Positions 4,073 through 56,454 of a stretch of DNA of 64,000 nucleotides are shown here, piece by piece. The translations under genes were made by a program, and so were the position numbers. The DNA lies in contig JBJXGE010000003.1 of assembly GCA_046154185.1 (NCBI GenBank), positions 21,144 to 85,143 on the forward strand, in the 5' to 3' direction. This DNA comes from Planctomycetota bacterium. Its GTDB lineage: Bacteria > Planctomycetota > UBA8108 > UBA1146 > JAJFFE01. The stretch's first letter is position 1, and the number at the start of each line of letters is the position of its first letter. The notes below the pieces were generated by a model. That model saw only the letters and a program-made list of their open reading frames with translations, had not been told where the DNA came from and ran no database searches.

Positions 4073-5284
4073 TTAGCCGCTTGCCATCCGGCGTAGTTCG
4101 CTGGCGAGGAACCGGTATTGCTCGGCGCTGTTGTAAAGCTGCGCCGAAACTCGCACGAGGCGGCGCGGCGGGCTTGGCCAGTTGATGATCGGCACTTCGA
4201 TGCGCGATTCCGCGAAAAGTCTATTTTGCAGCGGATCGAAGCCGTTGACGGGTGTTGCGTCGCTTGCGCACGCCGGTGTCGGCAGCGGCACCGCCGCGAG
4301 TGAGCCGATCATCTCGTCGGGCGCCGGTGTGGCGACGTCGAACTCGGCGCACAGCATGGCACGCGCGGCGAGCGCCAGCGCGCGGTTTTGTTTCATGAGC
4401 GCCGGCCAACCGCCTTTCACCATCGCGCCGAGCGTTTCGATTGCCGCCGGAACGCAGAGCGCGGCGCTCGGGTCATACGTCCCCGTCCAATCGAATTCGA
4501 CTCGGAAGCGCGAGCTCGCGCCGAGCGGTTGATTCGCTCCATGACTAATCGTGAGCGGTCGCACGAGCGCCTGGCGATCACGCCGCACATGGAGGAGCGC
4601 GGCGCCTTTTGGCGCGCACAGCCATTTGTGGCAATTGCCGGTGTAGTACGCGGCGCCAAGCGCGCGCAAATCGAGCGGCACCATGCCGGGCGCGTGCGCG
4701 CCGTCGACGAGCGTGTCGACGCCGCGCGCCGCGAACTCTTTGACAATGCGCGCCACCGGAAACACGAGACCGGTTTGACTCGTCACGTGATCGACGAGAA
4801 CGAGTCGCGTGCGCGCCGACGCGCGCGACACGATCGCATCCACGACCTCGTCGGCCGACGCGAGCGGAAACGGCACTGGCACGACAACCACGCGCGCGCC
4901 GCTCAATTCGGCGACATGGTTGAGCGCATTTCGGCACGCATTGTATTCCTGGTCGGTCACGAGCAGCTCGTCGCTCGGCTGAAAGCGCAGCGAACGCAAG
5001 ATCGTGTTCACGCCGCTCGTGGCATTCGCAACGAACGCGAGATCGTCGGGATCGGCGCCAACGAAGTTCGCAAGCGTGTCGCGCGCGTGCGCTAGCAGCT
5101 CCGGCAGCTCGCGCATCATGAACCGCACCGGCTCGCTTTCGAGCTGGTCGCGAAACGCGCGCTGGCGCTCGAGCACCGCGCACGGGCAAGCGCCGAAGGA
5201 GCCGTGATTGAGAAACACGACGCTGCGGTCGAGTCCCCAATGTCGAACGGGCTCAGCGAACTGCGGTTGCGGACGCGCGGTCAT
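4073..5284 (-). CDS. Aminotransferase class V-fold PLP-dependent enzyme (isopenicillin-N epimerase / cysteine desulfurase-like)
   Basis: Motifs for Gly-rich PLP binding and the SxHK lysine (YYTGNCHKWLCAPKGAALLHV). Start re-assigned to the internal ATG at 5284 (MTARPQPQFAEP...). The 92 codons upstream in the track ORF are an Arg/His-rich, non-protein-like extension. Confidence 0.8.
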   Translation of the reverse strand: MTARPQPQFAEPVRHWGLDRSVVFLNHGSFGACPCAVLERQRAFRDQLESEPVRFMMRELPELLAHARDTLANFVGADPDDLAFVANATSGVNTILRSLRFQPSDELLVTDQEYNACRNALNHVAELSGARVVVVPVPFPLASADEVVDAIVSRASARTRLVLVDHVTSQTGLVFPVARIVKEFAARGVDTLVDGAHAPGMVPLDLRALGAAYYTGNCHKWLCAPKGAALLHVRRDRQALVRPLTISHGANQPLGASSRFRVEFDWTGTYDPSAALCVPAAIETLGAMVKGGWPALMKQNRALALAARAMLCAEFDVATPAPDEMIGSLAAVPLPTPACASDATPVNGFDPLQNRLFAESRIEVPIINWPSPPRRLVRVSAQLYNSAEQYRFLASELRRMASG

Positions 5285-5334
5285 CGACAAGCGCCTCGAT
5301 TCTAAATCTGCAGTATGCAACGGAAGCGAACGAG

Positions 5335-5982
5335 CTACGGTTTCTTCATCACAAGCGGCAACACATCGGTGACGCCACCCACGATAATCTGCACCGCCAC
5401 GGCGGCGAGGATGAGTCCCATGAGTCGATTGAGAATGTTGAGGCCGGTGCGCTTGAGGCTGCGCTCGAGCATCGTCGCACCGCGCAGCATCACGTACGTC
5501 AACGCACCGGTGAGTAGAATCGCACCCACGACGACGCCGATGTGCATGACGTCCGGCCACGCTTGACTCATGAGCACTGTCACGGTGGCGATTGCGCCCG
5601 GGCCCGCGAGCATCGGGATGCCGATGGGGATGACCGCGACGTCCTCTTTTTCGATACCTTCGCTTTCCTCTTCGGGGCTCGTGCGTGTGCGCGATTTTTG
5701 CGCTCGCATCATGTCGAGCGCCATCTGGAAGAGCAGAATTCCGCCGGCGATCTTGAACGCGCCAATCGTGATACCGAAGAGTTTGAAAATGAGCCCGCCA
5801 GCGGCGGCGAACACCAGCAGCGTGAAAGTCGCCACGATGGCGGCGCGCAAGGCGGTGCGTTTTTTTTGTTCCAGCGTCTCGGCGCGCGTCATCGTGACGA
5901 ACAGCGGAATCGCCGCGATGGGATCGACGACGAAAAATATCGCGGAGAATGTCACCAGACTAAAGGACACCAGCTCGTACAT
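5335..5982 (-). CDS. MarC family (UPF0056) integral membrane protein
   Basis: 215 aa with six predicted TM helices. N-terminal FSLVTFSAIFFVVDPIAAIPLFVTMT and a central charged loop, as in the MarC family. Confidence 0.8.
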   Translation of the reverse strand: MYELVSFSLVTFSAIFFVVDPIAAIPLFVTMTRAETLEQKKRTALRAAIVATFTLLVFAAAGGLIFKLFGITIGAFKIAGGILLFQMALDMMRAQKSRTRTSPEEESEGIEKEDVAVIPIGIPMLAGPGAIATVTVLMSQAWPDVMHIGVVVGAILLTGALTYVMLRGATMLERSLKRTGLNILNRLMGLILAAVAVQIIVGGVTDVLPLVMKKP

Positions 5983-6578
5983 GGCGCGCGATTGTAGCGA
6001 CGGACAAAATTCGATCCATGCGGGTCAACCGTCGAACGCGACGGAACGTTTAAGTAACGCGCCGCTTTGGGTGTTTCACGCGTGCGCCGCGACTTTGTTT
6101 GCCGATCTTTCCAGGCCGACGTGCCTGTGCGGGCACTCAATTGTGCCGCCGGAGTTGCTCGTGTATCACGGGATCGCAGTGGGACTCGCATGGCTGGCGT
6201 TCATTTGCCACCCAAGCCCAAGATATTGGTGGCGCTTGGCGCTCGCGGCGCCAGTAATACTGTCGACGTACGTTTGGTGCTGCGATTGGCTCATCGCTCT
6301 CTTTGGCGAAGAGCACTGAGTCTCTCTCCAAGTTGACGAAGCGGTCTCTCCCGTGGATAGAACCGCCGCCAATCGCCGTTGGTGTCGGCTTTGGCGTCAC
6401 ATTGCGCGCTTGGCGTCGTCGGCGCCCCGGATCGCGTCCGTGCCCTCGGCTAAACACAAGCGCTGTAGTAACGTATCACTACGGCCATGGAATTTGACTG
6501 CGGAACCTCGGTCTCGAACTGAGCGTTCTTGGCACTCAGGCACTGGCTCGTTCTAGATTTTGACTTCGTGGCGGAAGA

Positions 6579-6601
6579 CAGACGATCACGGTGATCGTCT
6601 G
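6579..6601. promoter_or_regulatory. Perfect 11-1-11 palindrome CAGACGATCAC-G-GTGATCGTCTG, 33 nt upstream of the redoxin start; putative operator
   Basis: Read directly from the sequence. A TTGACT hexamer lies at 6560-6565 just upstream. Confidence 0.35.
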
Positions 6602-6633
6602 CTCAATCCAAGAGATCAACAGAAAGGATCTCC

Positions 6634-7209
6634 ATGCGAAATCGCTTTGCGATGTTTGCCGGCGCGTTGCTGGTGAGCATCTTGAGCCTCGGTTACGCCG
6701 GGGCGGATGACATGAAGAAAGACCCGCCGAAACCGAGCGACAAACCGCTCGACTTCGCGCTCAAGGATACGGATGGCAAAGACGTCAAACTTGCCGATCT
6801 GAAGGACAAGGTCGTTGTGCTGGAGTGGACCGAGGATGGCTGCCCTGCCATCGAAGGGTGTCTCAAGCAAGGCACAATGGCGAAGCTGGTGAAAGACTAC
6901 GGCTCGAAAGTCGTTTTCATCGGCGTGTGCACCGGTACGAAGAGTTCGCTCGAGGTCATGAAGAAATTCAAGGAGACGAACAAGATCGCGTACCCGATCG
7001 CCATGGACCCGACCGGCGAGGTCGGCAAGATGTTCGGCGCGAAGACCACGCCGCACATGTTCATCGTGAAGAACGGCAAGAAACTCTACGACGGCGCCAT
7101 CGACGACGCCAAGACCGAGCAAAAGGGCGTCAACTACGTCGCCAAGGCGCTCGACGAAATCTTGGCCGGCAAACCGGTCACGACCGCGTCGACCACGCCC
7201 TACGGCTGA
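6634..7209 (+). CDS. Thioredoxin-fold redoxin (TlpA/AhpC-TSA-like), secreted, with an atypical active-site motif
   Basis: AAAGGA SD 7 nt upstream. Signal peptide. Pattern VVVLEW..(C)..C...YG..VVFIGV....YP...D..G.....G....P..F of TlpA-like redoxins, but WTEDGCPAIEGC replaces the canonical WCxxC. Confidence 0.75.
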   Translation: MRNRFAMFAGALLVSILSLGYAGADDMKKDPPKPSDKPLDFALKDTDGKDVKLADLKDKVVVLEWTEDGCPAIEGCLKQGTMAKLVKDYGSKVVFIGVCTGTKSSLEVMKKFKETNKIAYPIAMDPTGEVGKMFGAKTTPHMFIVKNGKKLYDGAIDDAKTEQKGVNYVAKALDEILAGKPVTTASTTPYG

Positions 7210-7278
7210 CGCGTCAAATACCCGAAACCCAGCCCGTGAGGCTTGGGTTCCATTCAGCGTAGGTACCGCAGATAGCCG

Positions 7279-7333
7279 AGGGTCTGAAAGACCCGCAGGA
7301 TTAAAGCCCAGGGTTGGCCGGTCCGCCGGCCTA
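7279..7333 (+). terminator. Two stem-loops downstream of the redoxin gene: GGGTCT-gaa-AGACCC, and CCCAGGGTTGGCCGG-tcc-GCCGGCCTACCCTGGG with one mismatch
   Basis: Inverted repeats read from the sequence, 70-120 nt after the stop at 7209. Only a short TT follows. Confidence 0.4.
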
Positions 7334-7347
7334 CCCTGGGTTCATCG

Positions 7348-7470
7348 CATGCCCGAAACCGTCATCCCGCCCGCATCGCATGCCCGAAACCGTCATCCCG
7401 TCCGCATCGCATCCGCGAAACCATCAACCCGCCCGCACCGCATGCCCGAAACTTCAACCCTGAGTCATCG
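7348..7470. repeat. 31-bp direct tandem repeat, 4 copies (CATGCCCGAAACCGTCATCCCGCCCGCATCG consensus)
   Basis: Units at 7348-7378, 7379-7409 (1 mismatch), 7410-7440 (degenerate) and 7441-7470. The unit length is not a multiple of 3. The array is intergenic between convergent genes. Confidence 0.8.
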
Positions 7471-8589
7471 CGACGCGAGCAGTGCGAGCCGCGACGCATG
7501 CGGCAACCCCGCGCATCGCTCCAGCAATTGCCGCGCGAGGTCGCGGCCGCGAAGTTTTTCTAGGCGTGTCTTGCCGGCGCACAGCGCTTCGATCTCGGCG
7601 AGTTGTGCATCGATCTGTGTGGTGAGCGCTGCGCGCAGGCGATCTATGTCTCGCACGAACGCAGTATCAAACTTCGCGCAGCGCGCCAGCGCCCGATCGA
7701 GCAGTTGCAACGCATCCGCGTACCGCGTCCCGCTGGCGACAGTCGGCAACTGCATCAGCGTAGCGACGACGGCCTCGAAGTCCGCTCGCGGGAGCGGCGC
7801 GTGTGCGCCGCTCGAACGCGCCGCCTCGCATCGCGCTCGCCACTCGGCAACCAGTGCGTCGAGCGCCGCGCCATTAACCATTTCGCTGGCGACTGCGGTG
7901 GCGCAATCTGCGCGCGTGATGCGCATCGCGGGGAGCCGATAAGGAATTTCATCGACCGGGAGTTTGTCGAGCACCCAGGTCGGGGGCTCGGACTCGATCG
8001 TGCCGCGCAGCAACACGAACTCGCGCAGCTTCACTTGTTGCTCGGCGCTCTGCGTGACCTGCTCCATGCCGGTGCAGCGCGGGCACCAGGGGTTCGTGTA
8101 TTCCTCGAGCACAGGTCGGCCCGTGTAGAGCGCGAGCGCTTCGGCTTCCGCTTTCGAAGACAACCATCGATCTTCGGCGTACGCGGTCGGAAACGCCGGT
8201 AACTCAATTGAGAGTGGCGCGAGTGCGAGTCGCTCATGTTCCGCGAGTCGCTTCGAAGAGAGCAGACTCCACGAACCATAGGCCGCAAGCGTGAGGCCGA
8301 CGACCCACAGCGCGGCGCGCATCGCAGCGACGCGTCGCGTTCCGACGTGGGCCGGCACGGCGGTCGCGTTGGGACCAAACAACTTTGCGAGCAGTTTGGC
8401 GCAATCGGCCGGCGCAAGCTCGGGCGTCTCGCGGAGACCCGGCAAGCGCGAAATTTCCTGCACGCGCGCGAGCAACCGCGCGCAGTTTGGGCAGATGGCC
8501 AGATGCTGCTCGAACTCAACGACGTCGCGCGCCGCGAGTCGACCCGCGACGTATTCGGCGATCCCGAGCTCAGCATGCTTGCAATTCAA
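7465..8589 (-). CDS. Anti-sigma factor, zf-HC2 type, single-pass membrane protein; TTG start
   Basis: N-terminus LNCKHAELGIAEYVAGRLAARDVVEFEQHLAICPNCARLL (H-x3-C-x2-C zf-HC2). TM segment ALWVVGLTLAAYGSWSLL. TTG at 8589 overlaps the sigma stop as TTGA. The track ORF start at 8859 would overlap the sigma gene by 270 nt and is rejected. Confidence 0.7.
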   Translation of the reverse strand: MNCKHAELGIAEYVAGRLAARDVVEFEQHLAICPNCARLLARVQEISRLPGLRETPELAPADCAKLLAKLFGPNATAVPAHVGTRRVAAMRAALWVVGLTLAAYGSWSLLSSKRLAEHERLALAPLSIELPAFPTAYAEDRWLSSKAEAEALALYTGRPVLEEYTNPWCPRCTGMEQVTQSAEQQVKLREFVLLRGTIESEPPTWVLDKLPVDEIPYRLPAMRITRADCATAVASEMVNGAALDALVAEWRARCEAARSSGAHAPLPRADFEAVVATLMQLPTVASGTRYADALQLLDRALARCAKFDTAFVRDIDRLRAALTTQIDAQLAEIEALCAGKTRLEKLRGRDLARQLLERCAGLPHASRLALLASR

Positions 8590-9116
8590 CTGCGTCCCTC
8601 CGGCCGGCGCAGGTCGCCAGTAACTTTCATGAGCGCCAGGCGCAAACGAGATTCTACGGTCTTCACCGACTCCGTGGTGATGTCCGCGATTTCGCGACAG
8701 CTCAATTCCTCGATGCGATGCAACACAAACACGATGCGCTGCGCCGACGGCAACTTGTCGATCGCCCTCCACACGCGCTGGCGATCTTCCGCGCGATCGA
8801 TCGCTGGCGCGTCTTCGGGCGCCGTAACGCAGCGGTGGTCTGAACTCACTCGCAGCCAACGCTCGAGAAGCCGCCGCGCTCGACCCGCGCGCGTGCCGAA
8901 TTCACGCCACTGATTGAGCGCCACCTGGTAAACGTAAGTTCGACCGTTGCCAGTGCCCTGGTAGTTGCGCCGGTACTTCCAAAGTTTCAAAAACGTGCTC
9001 TGCAACAAGTCGTCCGCGGTGGCACGACAACCGCAAAGCCGCACGAAGAACCGCAGCAACGCCGCGTGGTGCTGCGCAAAAAGTTCTTCCATGGCGCTCT
9101 CGTCCGCGCGCGCCAC
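8586..9116 (-). CDS. ECF (sigma-70 family) RNA polymerase sigma factor
   Basis: Region 2 (LLRFFVRLCGC..DDLLQSTFLKLW) and region 4 (LPSAQRIVFVLHRIEELSCREIADITTESVKTVESRLRLAL). Exact start uncertain: GTG at 9116, or further upstream. The track start at 9461 adds a low-complexity extension. Confidence 0.75.
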   Translation of the reverse strand: MARADESAMEELFAQHHAALLRFFVRLCGCRATADDLLQSTFLKLWKYRRNYQGTGNGRTYVYQVALNQWREFGTRAGRARRLLERWLRVSSDHRCVTAPEDAPAIDRAEDRQRVWRAIDKLPSAQRIVFVLHRIEELSCREIADITTESVKTVESRLRLALMKVTGDLRRPEGRS

Positions 9117-9289
9117 CCGCAGGAGCAGTGAGCGAAACCCATCGTCCGGACCATCCGTCGCTGGCGTTGCGCTTGCGCTGATGGAACTTCGCGAACCGGG
9201 TCGCTCCTCAAATATCTTTGCGGAATCTGGTTGTTGTTGCAAAGGGGGCCGGCGGCGCGGCGTTGCGATCAGACAATCGTGGTCGATTC

Positions 9290-9316
9290 GAGTCGAGCCG
9301 AGTCGAGTCGAGTCGA
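9290..9316. repeat. Pentanucleotide microsatellite (GAGTC)n, 5 copies, in the sigma-factor upstream region
   Basis: GAGTCGAGCCGAGTCGAGTCGAGTCGA read from the sequence. Confidence 0.5.
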
Positions 9317-9523
9317 TACAGTCGTCGATCGCGGCGCTGTCGTCGTTCGAAGAGTTGCGAGGGATCGGAATCCTAACGCGAGACCGCGACCAGTGCGACG
9401 GCACGCACATTTTTTTGAGGGAGTCCGGGCGGTCGCGTGTCTCAACTATCACGGAGCGCATCCGTAATTCTCCCCAACGGGACTCTGAATCCCTCTAGGG
9501 TCCACAATACGGAAAGGACGTGA

Positions 9524-9727
9524 ATGCGTAAGTTTCTGGCGATCGCGCTCGTTGCTGTCGCGCTGCTCGTGCCCTGGTTCGCCGGGGTCGGCGCCGCGGG
9601 TGAGACGAAGAGCACGCGCTGTAATCAGCACGGCTGTCCGCTCGCTCAATCAGCATCGACGGATGGCTACCAAGCCATCGCGCAACTTCAGATCGGCACC
9701 GTCTCGGTCGCTGAGCTGGAAAAGTAG
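9524..9727 (+). CDS. Small secreted Cys-containing protein (67 aa), hypothetical
   Basis: AAGGA SD 5 nt upstream of ATG. Signal peptide MRKFLAIALVAVALLVPWFAGVGAAG. Mature part has CNQHGC. Confidence 0.4.
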   Translation: MRKFLAIALVAVALLVPWFAGVGAAGETKSTRCNQHGCPLAQSASTDGYQAIAQLQIGTVSVAELEK

Positions 9728-9865
9728 TGGCCACGGGGGCTGTGCACTGCTCGATGGGTCGGGTGTAGGCTCGTCTGGCTGGGCTGGCCCCTTTTCAATT
9801 TTCACGTTCGACCGCAATGTCGTCGGGCACCGCGCCCCGCTGCGAGAGTAAGAAGGAATCGCTTC

Positions 9866-10750
9866 ATGCAAAGTTCTCAGAAATCGAAGGGTCGGCCGCC
9901 GCGGCGGGCGAGACGTCTGCTGCGGGCACTCGGCGTCGCGCTGGTCGTGACGTTGTCGATGCTCGCGAGCGACGCGCTCGCGACGCGCGCGCCGACGGAC
10001 AATTCGCCTGCGTTCAAAGAGGCGTGGGATCTCTATCAAGCGGGCAAGCCGGCGCTCGCGAAGTTCGAGCAAATCGTCGCCGACGAGAAGGCGCCGAAAA
10101 AGGAGCGTTTCAACTCCGCATATGTGCTCGCCGTACTCGAACTCGCGCGCGAAAACGCCGACGCCGCGCTGAAGCATCTCGATCGCGCCGACGATCTCGT
10201 GGCGAGTCGACCCCAGGTCGCGACGCGACGAGGTGAGGCATTGATCTTGAAGAAAGACCTCAAGGGCGCGGCAAAAGTTTTGAAGGCGGCGGCCGCCGGC
10301 GTCAAGAGTGCGAAGAGCGCGGAGCTCAGCTTCACGCACGGCCTTGCGCTCACCCGACTCGAGATCGCGGCTGGCGAGAACGACGCTGCTCGCCAGCGAC
10401 TCGAGGCGCTCGCCCGCCAGCGACTCGAGCGCTGGGAGAGCTACTTCCAGATCGCGCTCCTGTACGAAAAACTCGACGATCCGAAGCCGGCGATCAGCAA
10501 CTACGCCGAAGTCCTGAAGCGCGACCCAGGAAAAGATCCCTTCGCGGGCATCTACGCCTACCAGCGGCACGCCGCGCTCAGTGTGGCATCCGACCCGGGC
10601 TCTTATGGCAAGAAACAGTTATTGACGGAGGCCAAGAAGAACTACGAGATCTTTTTGAAGCGCGCCGAAGCGAATGGGGTCGCCAGCAACTTGGTGGCGG
10701 TGACGACCAATGCAGTCGAGGGCATCAAGATGTTTCTCGGTGGTGGTTAG
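9866..10750 (+). CDS. Secreted TPR-like repeat protein, hypothetical
   Basis: AAGGA SD. Signal peptide. Helical repeat-rich sequence (AxxLxxAG motifs) consistent with TPR/Sel1-like repeats. Confidence 0.55.
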   Translation: MQSSQKSKGRPPRRARRLLRALGVALVVTLSMLASDALATRAPTDNSPAFKEAWDLYQAGKPALAKFEQIVADEKAPKKERFNSAYVLAVLELARENADAALKHLDRADDLVASRPQVATRRGEALILKKDLKGAAKVLKAAAAGVKSAKSAELSFTHGLALTRLEIAAGENDAARQRLEALARQRLERWESYFQIALLYEKLDDPKPAISNYAEVLKRDPGKDPFAGIYAYQRHAALSVASDPGSYGKKQLLTEAKKNYEIFLKRAEANGVASNLVAVTTNAVEGIKMFLGGG

Positions 10751-25242: not shown

Positions 25243-25398
25243 GACCGCAGATCCTAGGGCGCGCCCAGAGCATGGTCAAGCACCGACGCAAAGAGCCGTC
25301 GTTCCGCGGCAAGGAACCTTGAGCTTTGCACTCGCATGGGTTGCAATCGCGACTCGGTTTCAACCGGATCGATTTGCAAAGTGCCCGGAGGTGACGAG

Positions 25399-27333
25399 GT
25401 GACCGCGGATGCCATCTATAATGTCGTGCTCGGCACCGCCGGACACATCGACCACGGCAAGTCTTCGCTCGTTCGACAACTGACTGGCATCGATCCTGAT
25501 CGACTGCCGGAGGAGCAGGCGCGCGGTCTCACCATTGATCTCGGTTTTGCGCCGTTCGTCCTGAGCACCGGCGAGCGCGTCGGGATTATCGATGTGCCGG
25601 GGCACGAGCGCTTCGTCAAAAACATGGTAGCCGGCGCGACCGGCATCGACATAGTGGCGCTGGTCGTCGCCGCGGATGACTCCGTCATGCCGCAGACGCG
25701 CGAGCATATCGACATCATGACGTTGATCGGTGTGCGGCGCGGAGTGATTGTGATTAACAAGATCGACCTCGTCGAACCGGCGATGGTCGAGCTCGTCGAA
25801 GACGAAATTCGCGAGGCCGTGAAAGGTACTTTTCTCGACGGCGCGCCGGCGTATTACGTGTCGGCAACGACCGGAGCCGGAATACCGGAGCTGCGCGCCG
25901 CGCTCGAAACGCACTTGCGCGGTTTGCCGCCGCGCTCGACCGATGGCATTTTTCGGATGCCGATTCAACGGGTGTTTTCTGCGCACGGTCACGGCACTGT
26001 CGTGACGGGAATTCCGGTCAGTGGTCGCGTCGAGTTGCAGGATCGACTCGAAATTTTGCCGCTCGGTGTGACCGGTCGCGTGCGCGGACTGCAAGCGTAC
26101 AAGCAAACTGTGACGCAAGCGCGCGCCGGGCATTCGACAGCTATCAACTTGAGCGATGTGGATTTTCACGCGGTGCATCGCGGCATGGTGGCCGCCGTGC
26201 CAGGGTATTTCCAAGCGACCACGATGATCGAAGCGCGCGTGCGCGTGCTGGCGCATCTCGATCAGCCGGTGCGGCACCAAACGCCGATTCGCTTTCACAC
26301 GGGCACGGCCGAGGCGGCCGGCAAGATTTATTTGCTCGAAGACAAAGTCGTCGAGCCCGGCGCGGAGACCTATGCGCAGTTTCGGCTCACGGAGCCGATC
26401 GTCGTGGCGCCCGGCGATCGCTATGTGTTTCGACTCGAGTCGCCGATGATCACGCTCGGCGGTGGCGAGATCCTCGATCGCTCGGCGTGGCGGCTCAAAA
26501 CCGGGAAGGCGTACGTCGTCGAGCAACTGCGTCGCAAGGAGCAGGCGCTCGGCTCCGATTTGGAGTTCCTCGCGTCGCTCGTGGCCGAGACACCGCTCAA
26601 GATGATCGACGGCGCCGAGCTCGCGCGGCGCGCCGGCATGGCGGAAACCGAGGCGGCGAAGCATCTCGCGACCCTCGCGGAGCGCGGCGACCTGGTGCCC
26701 GTCAAGGGTGTGCAGCAATACTTGTCGCGCACAGGGCTCGAGCTCGCCGGAAAGCGCATCGAAGGTGCGCTCGACGAGTGCTATCGCAAATCGCCGTATC
26801 GTATTCACGTGCCGAAAGTCGAAGTGCTCGATGCTTGCCGACTCGACGCGGAATTTTGCGAGCATTGCCTCGCGAACCTAGCGAGCCGCGGCGTCGTGCG
26901 ACTCGAACGCGGCGGTCGGTTGTCATTGCCCGGTCGCGCGCTCAAGTTGAGTGGGGCGGAGCAAGAGGTCTACGATCTCATCGAGTCGACGTTTCGCAAG
27001 GACCTCCTCAATCCGCCGCGCCTCGACGAACTTGCTCAGCGCTCCGGTAAGCCGCTCAAGCTGCTCGAGAAGATGCAAGCGCTGCTCGTCGATCAAGAGC
27101 TGCTCGTGCGCCTCGCGCCCGATGTCGTGTTGTTGAGCGACGCGATCGACGGCGCCGCCGAAACGCTGAGAAAGTTGTTTCGCGATGAAGGCGCCTTCAC
27201 CGCATCGCGCGCCAAAGACGTCCTCGGCACCTCGCGCAAGTTCGCGATTCCACTCCTTGAATACTTCGACCGCCTGAAGATTACTCGCCGCCTCGGCGAC
27301 ACCCGCGAACTCGGCAGCGCGGGGGGTGGGTAG
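25399..27333 (+). CDS. selB: Selenocysteine-specific translation elongation factor
   Basis: GTP-binding domain ([32 protein letters not shown]), EF-Tu-like domains II/III and C-terminal winged-helix repeats. GTG at 25399 with GGAGG SD 7 nt upstream. Track start at 25336 also possible. Confidence 0.9.
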
Positions 27334-27495: not shown

Positions 27496-28041
27496 GTGGC
27501 TTGCGCAGACAGCAACAGAGATGAGAGCGATCGCCGCGCCGTCGCGGCGGCGCTCGATCACTGGCCGCGACTGCACGGTTTCGCCGCCGCGATTACCAAG
27601 GACTCGACGCGTGCGGATGATCTCTGTCAGACCGCCTACTTGCGGCTACTCGAACGCGCGAACACGATCGATTTCGACCGCCCGGTGCTGCCGCTGCTAC
27701 TAACCATCGTGCAGCGCGAAGCGGCGAGCGAGGCGCGGCGCGCGCGACCGCAGCCGCTCCCGGCTGACGACGGCGAGCGCGGGACGGCGCTTGTTGCCGA
27801 CAGCGGCGGCGAACCGTCCGAGTTGGCGGAGATCGCCGAGCGCCGAGTCGACATCCGCACGGCGCTCGAGACGCTGCCCGACAGTTGGCGAGCCGCGCTC
27901 TATCTCAAGGATGGGCTCGGCTGTTCCTATCGCGAGATCGGCGAAGTCATCGACGCGAGCTCCGACACTGTGAGGACCATGCTGCATCGCGCGCGTCGGC
28001 GCCTGCGAGCTCTTTGGACGGAGAGGACGGCGAGACAGTGA
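27496..28041 (+). CDS. ECF RNA polymerase sigma factor
   Basis: GTG start with AGGAG SD. Region 2 (DDLCQTAYLRLLERA) and region 4 (LPDSWRAALYLKDGLGCSYREIGEVIDASSDTVRTMLHRARRRL). Confidence 0.85.
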   Translation: MACADSNRDESDRRAVAAALDHWPRLHGFAAAITKDSTRADDLCQTAYLRLLERANTIDFDRPVLPLLLTIVQREAASEARRARPQPLPADDGERGTALVADSGGEPSELAEIAERRVDIRTALETLPDSWRAALYLKDGLGCSYREIGEVIDASSDTVRTMLHRARRRLRALWTERTARQ

Positions 28042-29165
28042 TGATCTGCGAGACCGTTGCCGAGCGACTGAGCGCGTATTTGGACCGCGAGCTCGATGCG
28101 CGCGAGCGCCTCGAACTCGATAGGCACCTCGACACCTGCGACGTTTGCCGGGCGGAGCACGAGGCCTTAGTTGCGCTGCGACATGCGACCGAGCAGCACT
28201 TTGCGCGACTCATCTCGTCGGCGTCGCGCGTCAGCGAGCCGGTTGCAACTCGTTGGTGTGAGCGGCGCGCGCGGAGCCCACGGCGCGCGCTCCGGTTCTT
28301 GAGCGGAATCGGCGCCGTCGCCGCCGCTGCCGCGATCGTCGTCATCACGCTCTACCCCGACTCACGGCTCGAGGGCAGCCCAGCGGAGCTGCTGCGCCGG
28401 GCAAGCGCGCGCTATCTCGCGCTCGCCGACGCGGAAGTGCGCCTCGTCGCCGAATCCGAAGCCCTGGAGGTATTGGGGAAATTGTTGGAGCGGAAACCGG
28501 CGAGCGAAGTCGGCGAGACCTCACCGGCCAGAGCCGGGGGTGACGACACGCCGAAAGCATTTCGAGTCATTCTCGGTGCGCCCAATCGTTTCTTGATCGA
28601 GCCGCTGGTCACGGGAGGCGTCGCGCTTCGCAGCGCCGATCTTTCGGGTTTTGATGGCCAAACGCTTTGGGAGTATCAACCGCAGCAGAATACCGTCGTC
28701 GTGCGCGGCGGTACCGAGCTACAAGCCGGCGGCTCGTTTGATCTCGGCTCCGCGGATTTCTTCGAGTTCCTCTCGTGGGGTTTCGTGCGCGAGATCAACA
28801 GTGCCGGCGACGATCTCGAAGTGATCGATGTCACGGGACCCTACGACCTGCGCGTCGGACGCCGCGTGTTTGAACTCGATCTTCGGCGCGGCGCCGCCGA
28901 GCGCGCGGCGGCGCCCGGTGCAGCGCCCGGCTGGCTCGCGATGCGGGTGCGAGTGTTTGTCGATCCGCGCGCGGACTTGATCGAGAAAGCCGTCTTCGAC
29001 GTCAACTTCGGCGGACTGAGTCTCGTGACGCTGCGCGCAGAACTGGTGTCGCTCGATTCAGGACTCGATCCGGCGGTATTCGATTTTCGGAGCCACGTGG
29101 GATCCGGAGTGCGAGTGGTGAGAGCCGACGACAAATCGGGCGCTCCGGCGCCCAAGCGCGAGTAA
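28041..29165 (+). CDS. Anti-sigma factor, zf-HC2 type, with periplasmic LolA-like/DUF4367-like domain
   Basis: ATG at 28041 overlaps the sigma stop (TGATG). N-terminus MICETVAERLSAYLDRELDARERLELDRHLDTCDVCRAEHEAL. TM segment FLSGIGAVAAAAAIVVITLY. Confidence 0.7.
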   Translation: MICETVAERLSAYLDRELDARERLELDRHLDTCDVCRAEHEALVALRHATEQHFARLISSASRVSEPVATRWCERRARSPRRALRFLSGIGAVAAAAAIVVITLYPDSRLEGSPAELLRRASARYLALADAEVRLVAESEALEVLGKLLERKPASEVGETSPARAGGDDTPKAFRVILGAPNRFLIEPLVTGGVALRSADLSGFDGQTLWEYQPQQNTVVVRGGTELQAGGSFDLGSADFFEFLSWGFVREINSAGDDLEVIDVTGPYDLRVGRRVFELDLRRGAAERAAAPGAAPGWLAMRVRVFVDPRADLIEKAVFDVNFGGLSLVTLRAELVSLDSGLDPAVFDFRSHVGSGVRVVRADDKSGAPAPKRE

Positions 29166-42397: not shown

Positions 42398-44716
42398 ATG
42401 CGTGCACTCGTACGGAGATGCTGTGTTGGCTCGGCGGTTGTATTGCTGCACTCGCTTGTGATCGTCATCGCTGTGCTGTCGACCACATTGGCGAGCGGCC
42501 AATACGCAACGACTTTCGACGCGCTCTTGGGAGATGCTGACGGCGAAACTCTGGTAGGTCAGGACTCCTACTATAATCCTGTCCCAGCGACCAGCGTCCC
42601 AGCGCTCGTCTATACCTATGCCGGCAACGTTCTCGGCGTGCCGGTGAACCCCACTGGCGGCGACAAATTCGCGGCTGGTGTCGGACCAGGTGGAAGCGTA
42701 TTCATGCGCACACAGCGCGACCTGGCATTTGGCGCCGGCACCGGCATTTGGTCGATCTCCTACGATGTCTCGGTGTCATTCATTGGTACCTTGCCGACGG
42801 CTCAAAATGCCGGCAGCGTTTCCACGCAAACGTTCCCGGGCGACAAAACTTTTATCGCCCTCAGCACCTGGACTGATATCACTACGGCCGCGGCCTGGAA
42901 CGCAGACTACGTTTGGTTCAACGCGACGGGCACGCAGCTACAGGAAATCGTGCCAGACCCGGCTTTCCAAAACCTCGTCGCGAACCAGTGGTATCGTCGA
43001 ACAACAATATTTAGTCTCGACACTTACCAGATACTCGAGGTCAGAATCACCGATCTCACGACCGCCATCACGACGAGCTACTCGCCGCCGGATCGCTACC
43101 TGTTCGGCGGCACGGCCTTCGCGCCGCCGTGCGATGGTTACCGCATTTTTGCCGGTGCCGCAACTGTCGCGGGCAATGTCGTCGCGTATGACAATGTCGT
43201 GATCGAGCAGATCATTCCGCTCTGCGCACCCATTGCGAGCTTAGTCTGCAGCGTAGACTGCGGTGCCGGCACCGTCGCGTTGAGCTGGCCCGGTGGGGCC
43301 TACACTGCGATCGAGGTTGAACGCGACACCATCTTGATTTCCACGCTCCCCGGAGGCGCCACCGGATTCGTCGACAATCCTGGTGTTTCCGGTAGCTATT
43401 CGTATCTGGTGCGCGGCATCTGTGCAGGCGGACCGGCGCTTTCAGGTCCGGTTTGCAATGCAGAAATCGCGATCGGCGGCGTCCAAGAAAACATCATCTG
43501 GGCGGGCGAGTCGGCCGCTCAAATCGATAGCGTGGCAGCGCTTGATGCGGCGATGACTGCGGCCGGCCTCGCGCACACGGTAGTGGCCGATTTGGGCAAC
43601 CTACCGTGTGGCGCAACGCTCACGCCATCAAACCGCGTGTGGGGCGCCATGGGTAGCTTCCCCAGCAATCACCCGATTTCGGTGGCCGAAGGCATGTTGC
43701 TGCGAGACCACGTTTTGGCGGGTGGCCACGTTTACATGGAGGGTGGCGATATTTGGGGTTTCGATCCGGCCACCGCCTTCAATACGGTCGATGGGATCGC
43801 CTCTCCGGCGGTCGACGGCGGCGATGACTTCACCGCCATGGTCGGATCGAGCTACGATGACGCCCAGTTCGCGGGATTGAATGCTGCATACAACCAGGAC
43901 CAAGCGGGCAACGACTGGACCGATCAGATCGCCGCCACCGCGACTGACATGGCGGGACCGAACGCCGGCGTGGTTTGGAATCGTGACGTGGGCGGCGGAG
44001 TCGCGGGTTACGGCACGGGCGTTTTCCACGCCAGCGACCAGCCTTTTGGTCGGGTGCTCAACCAGTCGTGGGAGTTCGGCGGCTACGGCGGCGACCAAAA
44101 CGCGCTGATACTCGCGTATGACGATGCGCTCCGCCGAGTGGGATCGCCGAGCGACCTTACTTGTTCGCAAGTGGGGACCACGGGTTCGGTGGATCTCGCC
44201 TGGACCAACCCGCAGAACTACGACAGCGTCAACGTCTACGTCGACGGTCCGCTCTACACCACGCTTGGCCCGCAGGCGGCGGGTTCGGCGTCCGCAACAA
44301 TTTCCGGTCTGTCAGTCCCCGGAGCTCACACCATTTGCATCCAAGGTGTGGTCGCGGGCGAATTGTCGCGACAAGTCTGCTGCATGGTCACTTTGGTCGC
44401 CCCGCCGGTCGACCTGATCAAGGTCGCCGACATCAATGGCGACGGCGCCGTCAACGTCGCAGACCCGATTAACATCCTCTCCGAGTTGTTCCCACCCATG
44501 CCTGGCCCGTCAGGCGGGTTCATAACTCTGGCCGGATGCCCAGCGGGCTTCGACTGCAATGGCGACAACATGGTCAACATCGCCGACCCGATTTTCTTGC
44601 TCAGTTGGCTGTTCTCGATGGGGCCGCCGCCGCCGGCCTGGCTCGGCACCGTGCCAGCTTGCAACCCAGCGAGCCCGATCCTCGGCTGCTTGTTCCCGCC
44701 GACTTCCTGCGATTGA
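42398..44716 (+). CDS. Secreted large protein with FN3-like Cys-containing repeats and C-terminal dockerin-like Cys-tail module, hypothetical
   Basis: Signal/TM N-terminus. Two FN3-like segments. C-terminal INGDGAVNVADPINILSELF...DCNGDNMVNIADPIFLLSWLFSMGPPPPAWLGTVPACNPASPILGCLFPPTSCD, ending in a stop codon. This is the most divergent copy of the module. Confidence 0.7.
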   Translation: MRALVRRCCVGSAVVLLHSLVIVIAVLSTTLASGQYATTFDALLGDADGETLVGQDSYYNPVPATSVPALVYTYAGNVLGVPVNPTGGDKFAAGVGPGGSVFMRTQRDLAFGAGTGIWSISYDVSVSFIGTLPTAQNAGSVSTQTFPGDKTFIALSTWTDITTAAAWNADYVWFNATGTQLQEIVPDPAFQNLVANQWYRRTTIFSLDTYQILEVRITDLTTAITTSYSPPDRYLFGGTAFAPPCDGYRIFAGAATVAGNVVAYDNVVIEQIIPLCAPIASLVCSVDCGAGTVALSWPGGAYTAIEVERDTILISTLPGGATGFVDNPGVSGSYSYLVRGICAGGPALSGPVCNAEIAIGGVQENIIWAGESAAQIDSVAALDAAMTAAGLAHTVVADLGNLPCGATLTPSNRVWGAMGSFPSNHPISVAEGMLLRDHVLAGGHVYMEGGDIWGFDPATAFNTVDGIASPAVDGGDDFTAMVGSSYDDAQFAGLNAAYNQDQAGNDWTDQIAATATDMAGPNAGVVWNRDVGGGVAGYGTGVFHASDQPFGRVLNQSWEFGGYGGDQNALILAYDDALRRVGSPSDLTCSQVGTTGSVDLAWTNPQNYDSVNVYVDGPLYTTLGPQAAGSASATISGLSVPGAHTICIQGVVAGELSRQVCCMVTLVAPPVDLIKVADINGDGAVNVADPINILSELFPPMPGPSGGFITLAGCPAGFDCNGDNMVNIADPIFLLSWLFSMGPPPPAWLGTVPACNPASPILGCLFPPTSCD

Positions 44717-44732: not shown

Positions 44733-44766
44733 GGGGCGGCTCCGTGCGGGAGCCGCCCCGTTTGCT
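44733..44766 (+). terminator. Rho-independent terminator: GGGGCGGCTCC-gtgcg-GGAGCCGCCCC followed by GTTTGCTTG
   Basis: Perfect 11-bp stem 17 nt after the stop at 44716, followed by a T-run. Confidence 0.6.
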
Positions 44767-45109
44767 TGACGCTTGCCGTGTTGTCCGTCACGAAGCCTCG
44801 AGTTGTGGTAGGTAGCAGCGCCTGGTTCACACATTCTGGCGATTCAATTGGCCCAGAATCCTGAGGATCGAGTCGGGCGGTGAGAAAATTCGTACCTCTC
44901 CAGAATCGTGAACGGCCATTTAGTTGTGACCACGGCGGAGGGCAAGCGCCCGATGGGGTTGGGAAGTTCGAAAGGGTCTAGGATCGGACCGTGGGGTTGC
45001 TTGATCGGAGAGCTGGAAACGATCATGGCGCACGCGCGCAGGTAGTCAGCCCCTCCGACTCCGTGCACGACGCGATGAAGCTCATGAACGGGGGACACAT
45101 CCAATCGCC

Positions 45110-49207: not shown

Positions 49208-50020
49208 TCACCAAGAGCCGGTGGCGCCGCCGCCGCCGGAAAATCCGCCGCCAAAACTGCCGCCGGAAAACGAACCTCTGCCGCGACGCGACTGGCTGAG
49301 CACTTGATAGAGAATCACGCCGAGAGCGGAAAACACCACGCCCCAAAAGACCCACGCCCAGCCGCGGCCACCACGACGCACAAGCGACACGATCGTAAAA
49401 ACCCCCATCGCGACCGCTCCAGCGATGAGCAGATAGTGCCAAGCTGGACGCGGCGGAACAACCGGCCCGGGAAGCGGCTTGCCCCGCGCCATCTGCGCTA
49501 GCGCCTCAACTCCCGCCACGATGCCCCGCGAAAACTCGTGTTGTTTGAATCGAGCAACAATCTGCTCATCCATGATGCGCTGCGCGAGATGATCTTGGTC
49601 GCGGCGCCAACCCGCACCGAGTTCGATGCGCGCCTTGCGGTCGCCGTCAGAGACCAGTAGCAGAATACCGGTGTTCCACAACTGCTGGTTGATCTTCTCA
49701 TGACCGATCTCCCACTCGTCGAATAGCAGCCGCGCAAACGTCTCGATGCGCAGGTCCGCGCCGCCGTGCCGAGACATGGACTCGATCGTAACGACGATAA
49801 TAGGCGTGCCAGTTTCGGTGAGCAGCTTGCCGCACAGCTCTCGAATCACCGATTCATCCGCGTCGCTGACCATCTCCGCGAGGTCACGCACGAACTCGCG
49901 ATCGGCAGGCCGCGCTAAATCGATGCGCTGCGCACCCGCCTGCTCGGCCAGCGCGCCACACATGGCCGACACCACCGCAACCAGAATTACTGGGCGCGAA
50001 ACTACTCGCTCGAAGATCAT
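49208..50020 (-). CDS. TPM domain-containing protein, YgcG-like, with C-terminal TM helix and Gly-rich tail
   Basis: Signal peptide. TPM core (IIVVTIESMSRHGGADLRIETFARLLFDEWEIGHEKINQQLWNTGILLLVSDGDRKARIELGAGW). C-terminal TM plus GSFSGGSFGGGFSGGGGATGSW. Confidence 0.75.
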   Translation of the reverse strand: MIFERVVSRPVILVAVVSAMCGALAEQAGAQRIDLARPADREFVRDLAEMVSDADESVIRELCGKLLTETGTPIIVVTIESMSRHGGADLRIETFARLLFDEWEIGHEKINQQLWNTGILLLVSDGDRKARIELGAGWRRDQDHLAQRIMDEQIVARFKQHEFSRGIVAGVEALAQMARGKPLPGPVVPPRPAWHYLLIAGAVAMGVFTIVSLVRRGGRGWAWVFWGVVFSALGVILYQVLSQSRRGRGSFSGGSFGGGFSGGGGATGSW

Positions 50021-54826: not shown

Positions 54827-55320
54827 ATGACAAACTCACCGATCGACAAGGAACCGCCACGAGCCGGTGAGACAGGACCTGATCGTGCGAAGGACCGGGA
54901 GGGCCAGCACGACGAGGTCGATACGACGCGAACTGCGCCCAAACCCTCCGGCCCGCCATTCATGCCCGCCATTCCGACTCAAATCGGTCCGTATCGCATT
55001 CTCGAGAAAATCGGCGAAGGCGGAATGGGAGTCGTCTATTTGGCGGAGGAGCGCGGTGAAATCCGGCGACGCGTTGCCCTGAAGGTCATGCTTCCTGGAA
55101 TGTCGAACCGAAAAGTCATGGCGCGGTTCGCGAGCGAGCGTCAGACGCTCGCCATGATGAGTCATCCCAATGTTGCGAGAGTCTTCAACGCCGGATCGAC
55201 CGATGAAGGCCTTCCCTACTTCGTCATGGAGTATGTGGGTGGGCTCGCGCTCACGGCATATTGCAGCCTGAACCGACTTGACACCCGCGAACGACTCGCG
55301 CTCGTGAGCGATCACGATTC
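54827..55320 (+). pseudogene. 3'-truncated Ser/Thr protein kinase (N-lobe only, about 160 aa)
   Basis: Intact ATG with GGAG SD. Gly-loop and Lys ([20 protein letters not shown]...VALKV), hinge ([12 protein letters not shown]). Homology stops before the catalytic HRDLKPxN loop, exactly at the inverted repeat at 55305. The track ORF reads through into the opposite-strand gene. Confidence 0.7.
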
Positions 55321-55345
55321 TGCATGGCAGAATCGTGATCGCTCA
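55305..55345. terminator. Perfect 19-bp inverted repeat TGAGCGATCACGATTCTGC-atg-GCAGAATCGTGATCGCTCA followed by TTT; bidirectional terminator-like hairpin at the kinase breakpoint
   Basis: Read from the sequence. Lies 5 nt from the stop (55351-55353) of the convergent minus-strand gene. Confidence 0.7.
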
Positions 55346-55350
55346 TTTGG

Positions 55351-56454
55351 TCACGGGCACGGCGGAAAGGCGTCGCAGGTCAGCGCGCCGCTGGTGGGGT
55401 CCGCGCCGCACGCGCTCGGAGGCGGCGGCAGCGGCGCCCCGGCGACGAACAGCGCCGACAGCACCGAGACGGCATCCGCAATGTTGACACTCTCGTCGTC
55501 GTTGGCGTCGGCAGCTTGGGCGCATGGTAGGAATCCCATGCTGAACAGCCCGCTCAAGATGCTGATCGCATCGGCGATGTTGAATGTGCCGTCCGCGTTG
55601 GCGTCCCCGCGGCGGAACTCGTCTTGTACCGGGCCGGCTGTGAATGCGCCGCCCCAGACGAACAGCCCGCAATCGTAGTTGTCATCTGTGCTGTCTGCGA
55701 CTGCAAACTTAAGCGTGTTTGCGCCGGGCACGACTTGAGCCGTTGCGCTGAGATATCCCATGACGCCGAAGTAGTCCGGTGCGAGCGGATAGGCGTCGAG
55801 AACGAAATCCGGCGGCACGAAGGTGAAATCGCTCGACATCGCAATCACCGGGTTGCCATCAATCTTGAAGAGTCGTTGTTCGCCGTTGGCGAACACTGCG
55901 GCCACGTCGGGATAGGGCGACATGCCAAAACCGTACTCCTGGCTGCCATAGGCGGCGAGCAGCGAAATCTCTCCGGCGCTTGCCGAGTTGAACTCGATCA
56001 CCAGGCTCGAGGCATCGCCGGTGCTGGTGCTGAATCCAAACTCGCTGAGTAGCGCATCGAGATCGGCGTCGCCGGGTAGACCGAGCGAGCGGCCTGGAAA
56101 CGGGAAGTAACCGGGGAGCGTCGGCTGGATGTCGACGGCTCCGCCTGAGGTCAGCAACAAACCGGGCGGCTCGCCGGCGAAATATGTATCTCCCGGTGTA
56201 TACACTCCCGCACCGATCAGTGCGCCGGTGTACGTCACCGAAGTAATACTTATTCCGGGCGCGCTCACGAAGGCGAGTGTGAGCGCGAGATCGGTCGGCG
56301 TTGCTGTGGGAAGCGTCGTTACTGAAACGACGGGTTGCGCAGGCGCTGTGGAGACGAGTACGAGTCCCATTGCAAGCGCGAGCCCAAGACTTATAAGCCC
56401 CCGCCAACCGGCTGTGCGGCGTGCGCAGCACTCGAACTTTGTGAAGGCAAACAT
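55351..56454 (-). CDS. Secreted beta-rich protein with C-terminal dockerin-like Cys-tail module
   Basis: Signal peptide [42 protein letters not shown]-terminal [25 protein letters not shown]...[52 protein letters not shown], ending in a stop codon. Confidence 0.75.

Follow-up and report, generated by a model that had tools for sequence, protein, structure and literature searches.

A 31-nt tandem repeat between convergent redoxin and anti-sigma factor genes of a planctomycete, probably a lineage-specific minisatellite

A 31-nt unit arranged in tandem, in about four copies, was identified by TRF and by frame-by-frame matching at positions 7343–7470 of a 64-kb stretch of planctomycete DNA, which is referred to here as the window. 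The array, with a total length of about 125 bp, lies between two convergent genes that encode a secreted redoxin and an anti-sigma factor. We consider it probable that the array is a lineage-specific, non-coding minisatellite located in the likely 3' untranslated region (3' UTR) of a sigma/anti-sigma transcript, remodelled by slippage or unequal recombination and without detectable constraint. The features of the locus, given as positions in the window, are the following.

6634–7209, + strand: secreted redoxin of the AhpC-TSA family, 191 aa, the upstream convergent gene (NCBI protein at 100% identity and coverage)
7226–7249: hairpin 1, which begins 17 nt past the redoxin stop codon, with −12 to −16 kcal/mol and with 24 of 24 positions shared with the relative described below
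7281–7295: hairpin 2, small, with a 5-bp stem and one loop difference in the relative
7307–7340: hairpin 3, −29.6 kcal/mol on either strand, a 14-bp GC-rich stem interrupted by one internal mismatch and closed by a 4-nt loop, with 34 of 34 positions shared with the relative
7343–7347: partial unit CATCG, equal to the last 5 nt of the unit, which is the start of the TRF array and opens it 2 nt past hairpin 3
7348–7378: unit 1, CATGCCCGAAACCGTCATCCCGCCCGCATCG, the reference for the unit comparisons
7379–7409: unit 2, 30/31 against unit 1, with C to T at 7401
7410–7440: unit 3, 26/31 against unit 1, the closest to the unit of the relative (26/31)
7441–7470: unit 4, 30 nt with a 1-nt deletion, 23/31 against unit 1 with a 1-nt gap
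7465–8589, − strand: zf-HC2 anti-sigma factor, 374 aa, the downstream convergent gene (NCBI protein at 100% identity and coverage)
8586–9461, − strand: ECF sigma factor, whose stop codon overlaps the anti-sigma start

TRF reported a single array over 7343–7452 (period 31, 3.5 copies, 88% matches, no indels) with a score of 178, by far the highest of the 44 rows obtained for the window, the runner-up scoring 77. When frames of 31 nt were read from 7348 and compared with unit 1, those starting at 7348, 7379 and 7410 matched at 31, 30 and 26 of 31 positions, respectively, and the flanking frames on both sides showed the background level of 4–12 of 31 (window-wide mean 8.4, sd 2.5). None of 100 dinucleotide shuffles of the window gave a match to the unit at three or fewer mismatches. 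The original prediction of a tandem 31-bp repeat of four units was therefore confirmed by both approaches, with identities to unit 1 of 31, 30, 26 and 23 of 31. On recount, the sequence of the unit, its boundaries and its degeneracy were all as predicted; copies 1 and 2 differ by a single nucleotide (the C/T at 7401), copies 3 and 4 are degenerate, and the period is not a multiple of 3. The predicted periodicity is strict in units 1–3, and the fourth copy is off-period through its deletion. The proposed extent, 7348–7470, has to be enlarged by 5 nt, since the array begins with the partial unit. The array had also been described as intergenic; it does fill the spacer up to the anti-sigma stop codon, and yet it is not purely intergenic, because its last 6 nt (7465–7470) are the TGA stop and the last Arg codon of the anti-sigma coding sequence.

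Both flanking genes have the boundaries of their NCBI protein records, in agreement with the convergent arrangement described earlier. Since the stop codon of the sigma gene overlaps the start of the anti-sigma gene, the two constitute an ECF sigma/anti-sigma operon. The annotated anti-sigma start has a good GGAGG site, and a search of 5.8 billion protein clusters returned no homologue of the anti-sigma factor beyond its own NCBI record. The spacer between the redoxin and the anti-sigma gene comprises 255 nt and contains three hairpins followed by the array, which occupies the whole gap between hairpin 3 and the anti-sigma stop codon. The source contig has 92,132 bp and belongs to a short-read MAG designated 'Planctomycetota bacterium', with the array placed mid-contig. 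Near neighbours include MarC, the redoxin, the ECF sigma/anti-sigma pair, a TPR protein and RpoN, and the wider neighbourhood is that of an ordinary chromosome (aminotransferase, MarC, RpoN, SelB, RND efflux components and alpha-2-macroglobulin).

Additional observations were made on the genes of the window. The C-terminal part of the anti-sigma factor has a weak, sub-threshold match to Thioredoxin_7 (E = 1.2e-4), and its gene converges on that of a secreted redoxin; this anti-sigma/ECF pair beside the redoxin may represent a redox-sensing ECF module. A second zf-HC2 anti-sigma-like protein is encoded at 27885–29165 (+), consistent with the many ECF sigma/anti-sigma pairs carried by planctomycetes. 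The selenocysteine-specific elongation factor SelB was located at 25336–27333 (+), and ARAGORN detected no tRNA, tRNA-Sec included, in the 64-kb window. The match of another ORF, at 54827–55678 (+), to the protein kinase domain is confined to the first 90 of 263 domain positions, and a 367-aa ORF overlaps it on the opposite strand (55351–56454, −); truncation or a frameshift of a kinase gene may account for this.

The spacer comparison was made possible by one relative, a 774-bp ENA metagenome contig with the SPAdes-type name NODE_164129 (L002), whose redoxin is 88% identical in amino acids. It is the only close relative of this redoxin, all other matches being at most 53% identical. The contig runs 175 nt past the redoxin stop codon and aligns without gaps to positions 7210–7384 of the window. 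It contains all three hairpins, followed by CATGCGAGAGACTATCAATCCGCCCGCACCG and then by CATGCC at the contig end. The relative thus carries a complete 31-nt unit and the beginning of the next, and in it CACCGCATGC is repeated exactly 31 nt apart. Given the same spacer and the same 31-nt periodicity, the array is seen in an independent assembly and predates the split of the two organisms.

The two parts of the spacer have diverged differently. In the redoxin coding sequence, the relative and the window share 89% of nucleotides, 82% of third codon positions and 82.5% (66/80) of 4-fold degenerate sites. No difference was seen over the 58 positions of hairpins 1 and 3 (58 of 58; P about 1.4e-5 at the neutral rate), and on this evidence they are clearly the constrained part of the spacer, under selection. 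The unit of the relative agrees with unit 1 of the window at 23/31 positions (P = 0.16 under neutral drift) and with unit 3 at 26/31 (P = 0.65 under neutral drift). These values, which come from one comparator, one full unit and 31 positions, are compatible with divergence of the repeat unit at about the neutral rate, and suggest that the selection seen on the hairpins does not extend to the repeat.

The comparison of units also bears on how the array may have arisen. The first unit of the relative is nearer to unit 3 of the window than to unit 1, its positional counterpart; for this reason, unit 3 is probably the nearest to the ancestral form. The near-identity of units 1 and 2 points to a recent duplication. 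Taken together, these two patterns are as expected from, and would indicate, a turnover of units by gain, loss and homogenisation, through slippage or unequal exchange. Arrays with turnover by duplication typically show such graded unit identities, here 30, 26 and 23 of 31. On the other side, the half-unit CCGCCCGCAyCGCATGC is better conserved than the other half in the five known units. In the minisatellite reading, a 31-nt segment beside the anti-sigma stop codon would have been duplicated in tandem, and slipped-strand mispairing or unequal recombination would then have remodelled the array, such that the left-hand two units go back to a recent duplication and the right-hand ones are older and have decayed. 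Transcription of the array would be passive, with the repeat forming a G-rich 3' untranslated part of the sigma/anti-sigma mRNA that is without structure. The analysis shows the repeat pattern, its uniqueness in the scans described below, its occurrence at the same locus in one relative, its divergence at the neutral rate and the lack of RNA structure; slippage, transcription within a 3' UTR and the absence of function are in this account what we infer. As a counterpoint, the array has been kept at this locus since a split corresponding to 17.5% divergence at 4-fold degenerate sites, and it is therefore no very young accident.

Each of the two convergent transcription units probably has its terminator in one of the hairpins 7226–7249 and 7307–7340. 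Past hairpin 3, the − strand continues with CTTTAATCC. The tail of this hairpin, CUUUAAUCC, has 4 U in the first 8 nt; because the consensus terminator scan uses a threshold of 5, hairpin 3 was not listed by it. The + strand tails are poor in U (CCATTCAG after hairpin 1 and TTCATCG after hairpin 3). A textbook hairpin of similar strength was observed at 44733–44770 (+), with a 12-bp GC stem and −30 kcal/mol, after a + strand ORF ending at 44716; with its tail GTTTGCTTG / GUUUGCUUG, it displays the intrinsic terminator style of the genome. The region downstream of it, at about 44953, is the most G-rich, C-poor 78-nt stretch of the + strand. The − strand tail of hairpin 3, considered together with the comparable hairpin at the end of the 44716 ORF, suggests hairpin 3 as the probable terminator for the ECF sigma/anti-sigma operon, in which case the array would be the 3' untranslated region of this operon.

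A possible lone, degenerate copy of the unit (CGCGTCAAATACCCGAAACCCAGCCCG) was noted at 7210–7236, directly after the redoxin stop codon and about 110 nt upstream of the array, where it overlaps the left arm of hairpin 1. The evidence for this copy is weak: of 791 background segments, 0.8% reach its local alignment score of 22, in a test of four segments. Were this copy genuine, the hairpin block would be sandwiched between repeat copies. Degenerate copies reaching into the anti-sigma coding region were also considered and rejected as not significant (score 18, with 4.7% of background segments as high).

Further copies of the unit, whose search had been suggested with the original prediction, were found neither in the 64-kb window nor in the pattern scans of genomes and metagenomes. 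At three or fewer mismatches, the unit occurs in the window only at 7348 and 7379, and ungapped scoring of every window position on both strands placed only the array above background, the best match elsewhere being 21/31. Hairpin 3 occurs once in the window. A degenerate 25-mer of the unit had no match in 185,579 GTDB species-representative genomes, among which the source MAG is not included, and none in the JGI metagenomes, where a pattern spanning two units and based on the half with better conservation also had no match. A 19-mer of hairpin 3 gave no match in viral contigs. The conserved spacer 21-mer just upstream of hairpin 2, GCAGATAGCCGAGGGTCTGAA, had one exact match among the GTDB genomes, at positions 4733–4753 of DKBI01000273.1 (L003; Betaproteobacteria UBA6904); it was dismissed as chance, as it falls in a sulfatase-like coding region with unrelated flanks. 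Searches with blastn against 72,556 plasmids returned nothing relevant, only a 49-bit chance match in a Pantoea amidase gene. Accordingly, no second locus that would place the array in a dispersed family was observed in the 64-kb window, and the genome, metagenome and viral scans yielded nothing or a chance match in coding sequence. A much weaker tandem repeat, with a period of 12–15, about 3 copies and the unit GCCGCCGGAAAACT, is present in a C-rich stretch at 49230–49271.

Several analyses for function were applied to the locus. With Rfam, no family passed the gathering scores, and relaxing the limit to E = 10 added only chance-level hairpin noise (E = 0.5–8). ARAGORN identified no tRNA or tmRNA genes. 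No sigma-70-like promoter was found in 6400–9700 and no DnaA-box-like site in 5000–10000, and the neighbours of the array include no replication initiator or partition genes. The RNA of the array is less stable than shuffled sequence (z = +1.5 for the + strand and +2.8 for the − strand), which argues against a structured RNA. Three ORFs overlap the array (7314–7463, +; 7349–7942, +; 7362–7499, −). They were rejected as genes, given that the 31-nt period rotates the frame and that the long ORF is antisense to a real gene; spurious ORFs are common in high-GC sequence. An ECF-promoter reading of GAAAC...CGTC in the unit was discarded by eye, its spacing being off the 16–17 nt.

The C-rich, G-poor and unstructured character of the + strand could reflect selection instead of chance, and the most attractive functional reading of the array is Rho loading, even if we regard it as unlikely. 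The repeats would in that case build a rut-like Rho-loading site, at which redoxin read-through is stopped before running far antisense into the anti-sigma gene. No other stretch of the 64 kb has a + strand as C-rich and G-poor as that of the array, at either the 78-nt or the 120-nt scale; the best 78-nt window, from 7383, contains 38 C and 12 G (C/G 3.17), and the array is the sole + strand region where a 78-nt window reaches a C/G of at least 3. There are 24 YC dimers, compared with a background of 10.7 ± 3.1, together with a chain of C residues spaced 11–13 nt, and the + strand RNA is unstructured (z = +1.5, as above). Rut sites are not known to consist of tandem repeats, and in this the array differs from them; it resembles them in having at least 78 nt with C far above G, regular C spacing, many YC dimers, little structure and a position past a stop codon. 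RhoTermPredict describes RUT sites by C/G > 1 over 78 nt and by C residues every 11–13 nt, a composition that the array shows in the top C/G class, although these criteria are very permissive, with 23,930 predictions in E. coli (PMC6407284). Read-through would expose about 120 nt of C-rich RNA, hairpins 1 and 3 being without good U-tails on the + strand, and according to a review, Rho acts generally to suppress antisense transcription and terminates most genes in high-GC mycobacteria (PMC12360218). Against this reading, a repeated unit amplifies any chance base skew, the unit of the relative is far less skewed (12 C, 7 G), and the unit sequence drifts at the neutral rate. No rho gene was found among the window ORFs scanned. 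A further form of the same idea, quite unlikely in our estimation, is a modular Rho-loading site in which a copy number set by slippage would tune where redoxin read-through stops, so that the minisatellite would serve as a tunable insulator between convergent genes. On the opposite strand, the array might be a 3'-UTR regulatory RNA or a 3'-UTR-derived sRNA, acting as a CsrA/Rsm-type sponge or through RNA G-quadruplexes, which seems improbable. In the − strand RNA of the array, GGA occurs four times over about 50 nt, twice in agreement with the core of the CsrA consensus (GGGAUGA vs RGGAUG), and of the three relaxed G4 motifs present on the − strand of the window, the array contains two. Its position, past a stop codon and ahead of a probable terminator, is also one from which 3'-UTR sRNAs arise. 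However, GGA is common in sequence of 62–65% GC, the motifs are outside hairpin loops in an RNA that is less structured than shuffles (z = +2.8), and neither their position and number nor those of the relaxed G4 motifs are conserved in the unit of the relative. Furthermore, no canonical G4 motif with loops of 1–7 nt is present in the array, the unit of the relative loses one G-tract (CTCGCATG in place of CGGGCATG), and no 3'-UTR RNA element was matched in Rfam. The earlier suggestion of a small-RNA locus was not supported, as the array has no Rfam match and no promoter-like site and folds worse than shuffles on both strands; a small-RNA gene would be characterised by a promoter and terminator of its own, a stable or conserved structure or a curated family.

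Iteron-like DNA binding sites, also suggested with the original prediction, were not supported by the context, which is that of an ordinary chromosome with no replication gene, DnaA box or promoter nearby. In this reading, which we judge distinctly improbable, the units would be bound on the same helix face by a replication, partition or regulation protein. The direct repeats have a period near 3 × 10.5 bp, about three helical turns, and the better-conserved half-unit includes the palindrome GCATGC; this hexamer, however, has an unremarkable 21 occurrences in the window. No initiator or partition gene accompanies the array, and its position between convergent 3' ends leaves no promoter to regulate, none having been predicted there. 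The plasmid search gave no relevant match, and the units diverge at the neutral rate. Iterons usually have 17–22 bp, are located at an origin by a rep gene and are conserved as binding sites; the array shares with them direct repeats spaced near whole helical turns, and it differs in its 31-bp unit, in the lack of an origin or rep gene nearby and in showing no conservation as a binding site. That the array, or its copy number, is a duplication made by the assembler is very improbable. The 31-nt period is a common k-mer size, the array comes from a short-read MAG, and two independent contigs break near it: the Logan contig L001 of SRR28962013, 100% identical to window positions 5259–7268, ends at 7268, 75 nt before the array, and L002 ends inside its second unit. 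These contig ends could be explained by low coverage, or by a sequence repeated in the genome that starts near 7269. An artefact would nevertheless give exact copies, and the four units differ in a graded way; the array is also in the middle of a 92-kb contig, and the independent assembly NODE_164129 has the identical 31-nt periodicity with a diverged unit.

Compared with known repeat systems, the array shares single traits with several of them. MIRUs of Mycobacterium are a dispersed family of about 40 loci, found within operons between co-directional genes and made of 40–100 bp units. With a MIRU-type VNTR, the array has in common the high-GC genome, a tandem repetition measured in tens of bp, the contact with a stop codon and a copy number that is likely variable through slippage; unlike MIRUs, it occupies one locus, where the flanking genes converge, and no family members were detected. 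BOX of Streptococcus pneumoniae and BIME/REP of enterobacteria are high-copy dispersed families that combine a hairpin module with a tandem module at gene 3' ends. The locus is like them in having a hairpin-forming block adjoining a tandem module at gene 3' ends, whereas no second occurrence of the hairpin block or of the unit was seen in the 64-kb window or the scanned collections. With CRISPR arrays it has in common a repeat of about 30 nt; the exclusion of CRISPR in the original prediction is upheld, since the copies are contiguous at 31 nt from start to start, with no spacers, the unit is non-palindromic and no cas gene was found among the ORFs scanned.

The closest resemblance is to prokaryotic satellites, defined by Subirana and Messeguer (2019) as at least four tandem repeats of 10–200 nt, many of which are unique within their genome and 29 of which were reported in the planctomycete Rhodopirellula baltica (PMC6749651). 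Like these, the array is head-to-tail, has a unit within 10–200 nt and about four copies, is non-coding and is apparently unique (PMC6749651). Its unit length is well inside the range, with the period of 31, 88% matches and no indels over the TRF interval. The copy number just reaches the limit, with four units and a 5-nt partial one by hand, 3.5 copies by TRF and the fourth unit degenerate; in this, and in its very short length of about 125 bp, the array is unlike typical prokaryotic satellites. A replication-slippage satellite, the remaining option of the original prediction, agrees with the near-identical neighbouring units, the degenerate outer units, the neutral-rate divergence and the absence of other copies in the scans. 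The array is also a candidate VNTR, for which the copy number comes from one short-read assembly.

As a neutral minisatellite, the array would be at most a strain-typing marker for this uncultured planctomycete lineage, and the locus warns that short-read assemblies break here. If the modular Rho-loading reading were true, copy-number-variable repeats could tune termination between convergent genes. The comparison with the relative is more useful for the hairpins, which would mark the transcript ends of both the redoxin and the anti-sigma genes.
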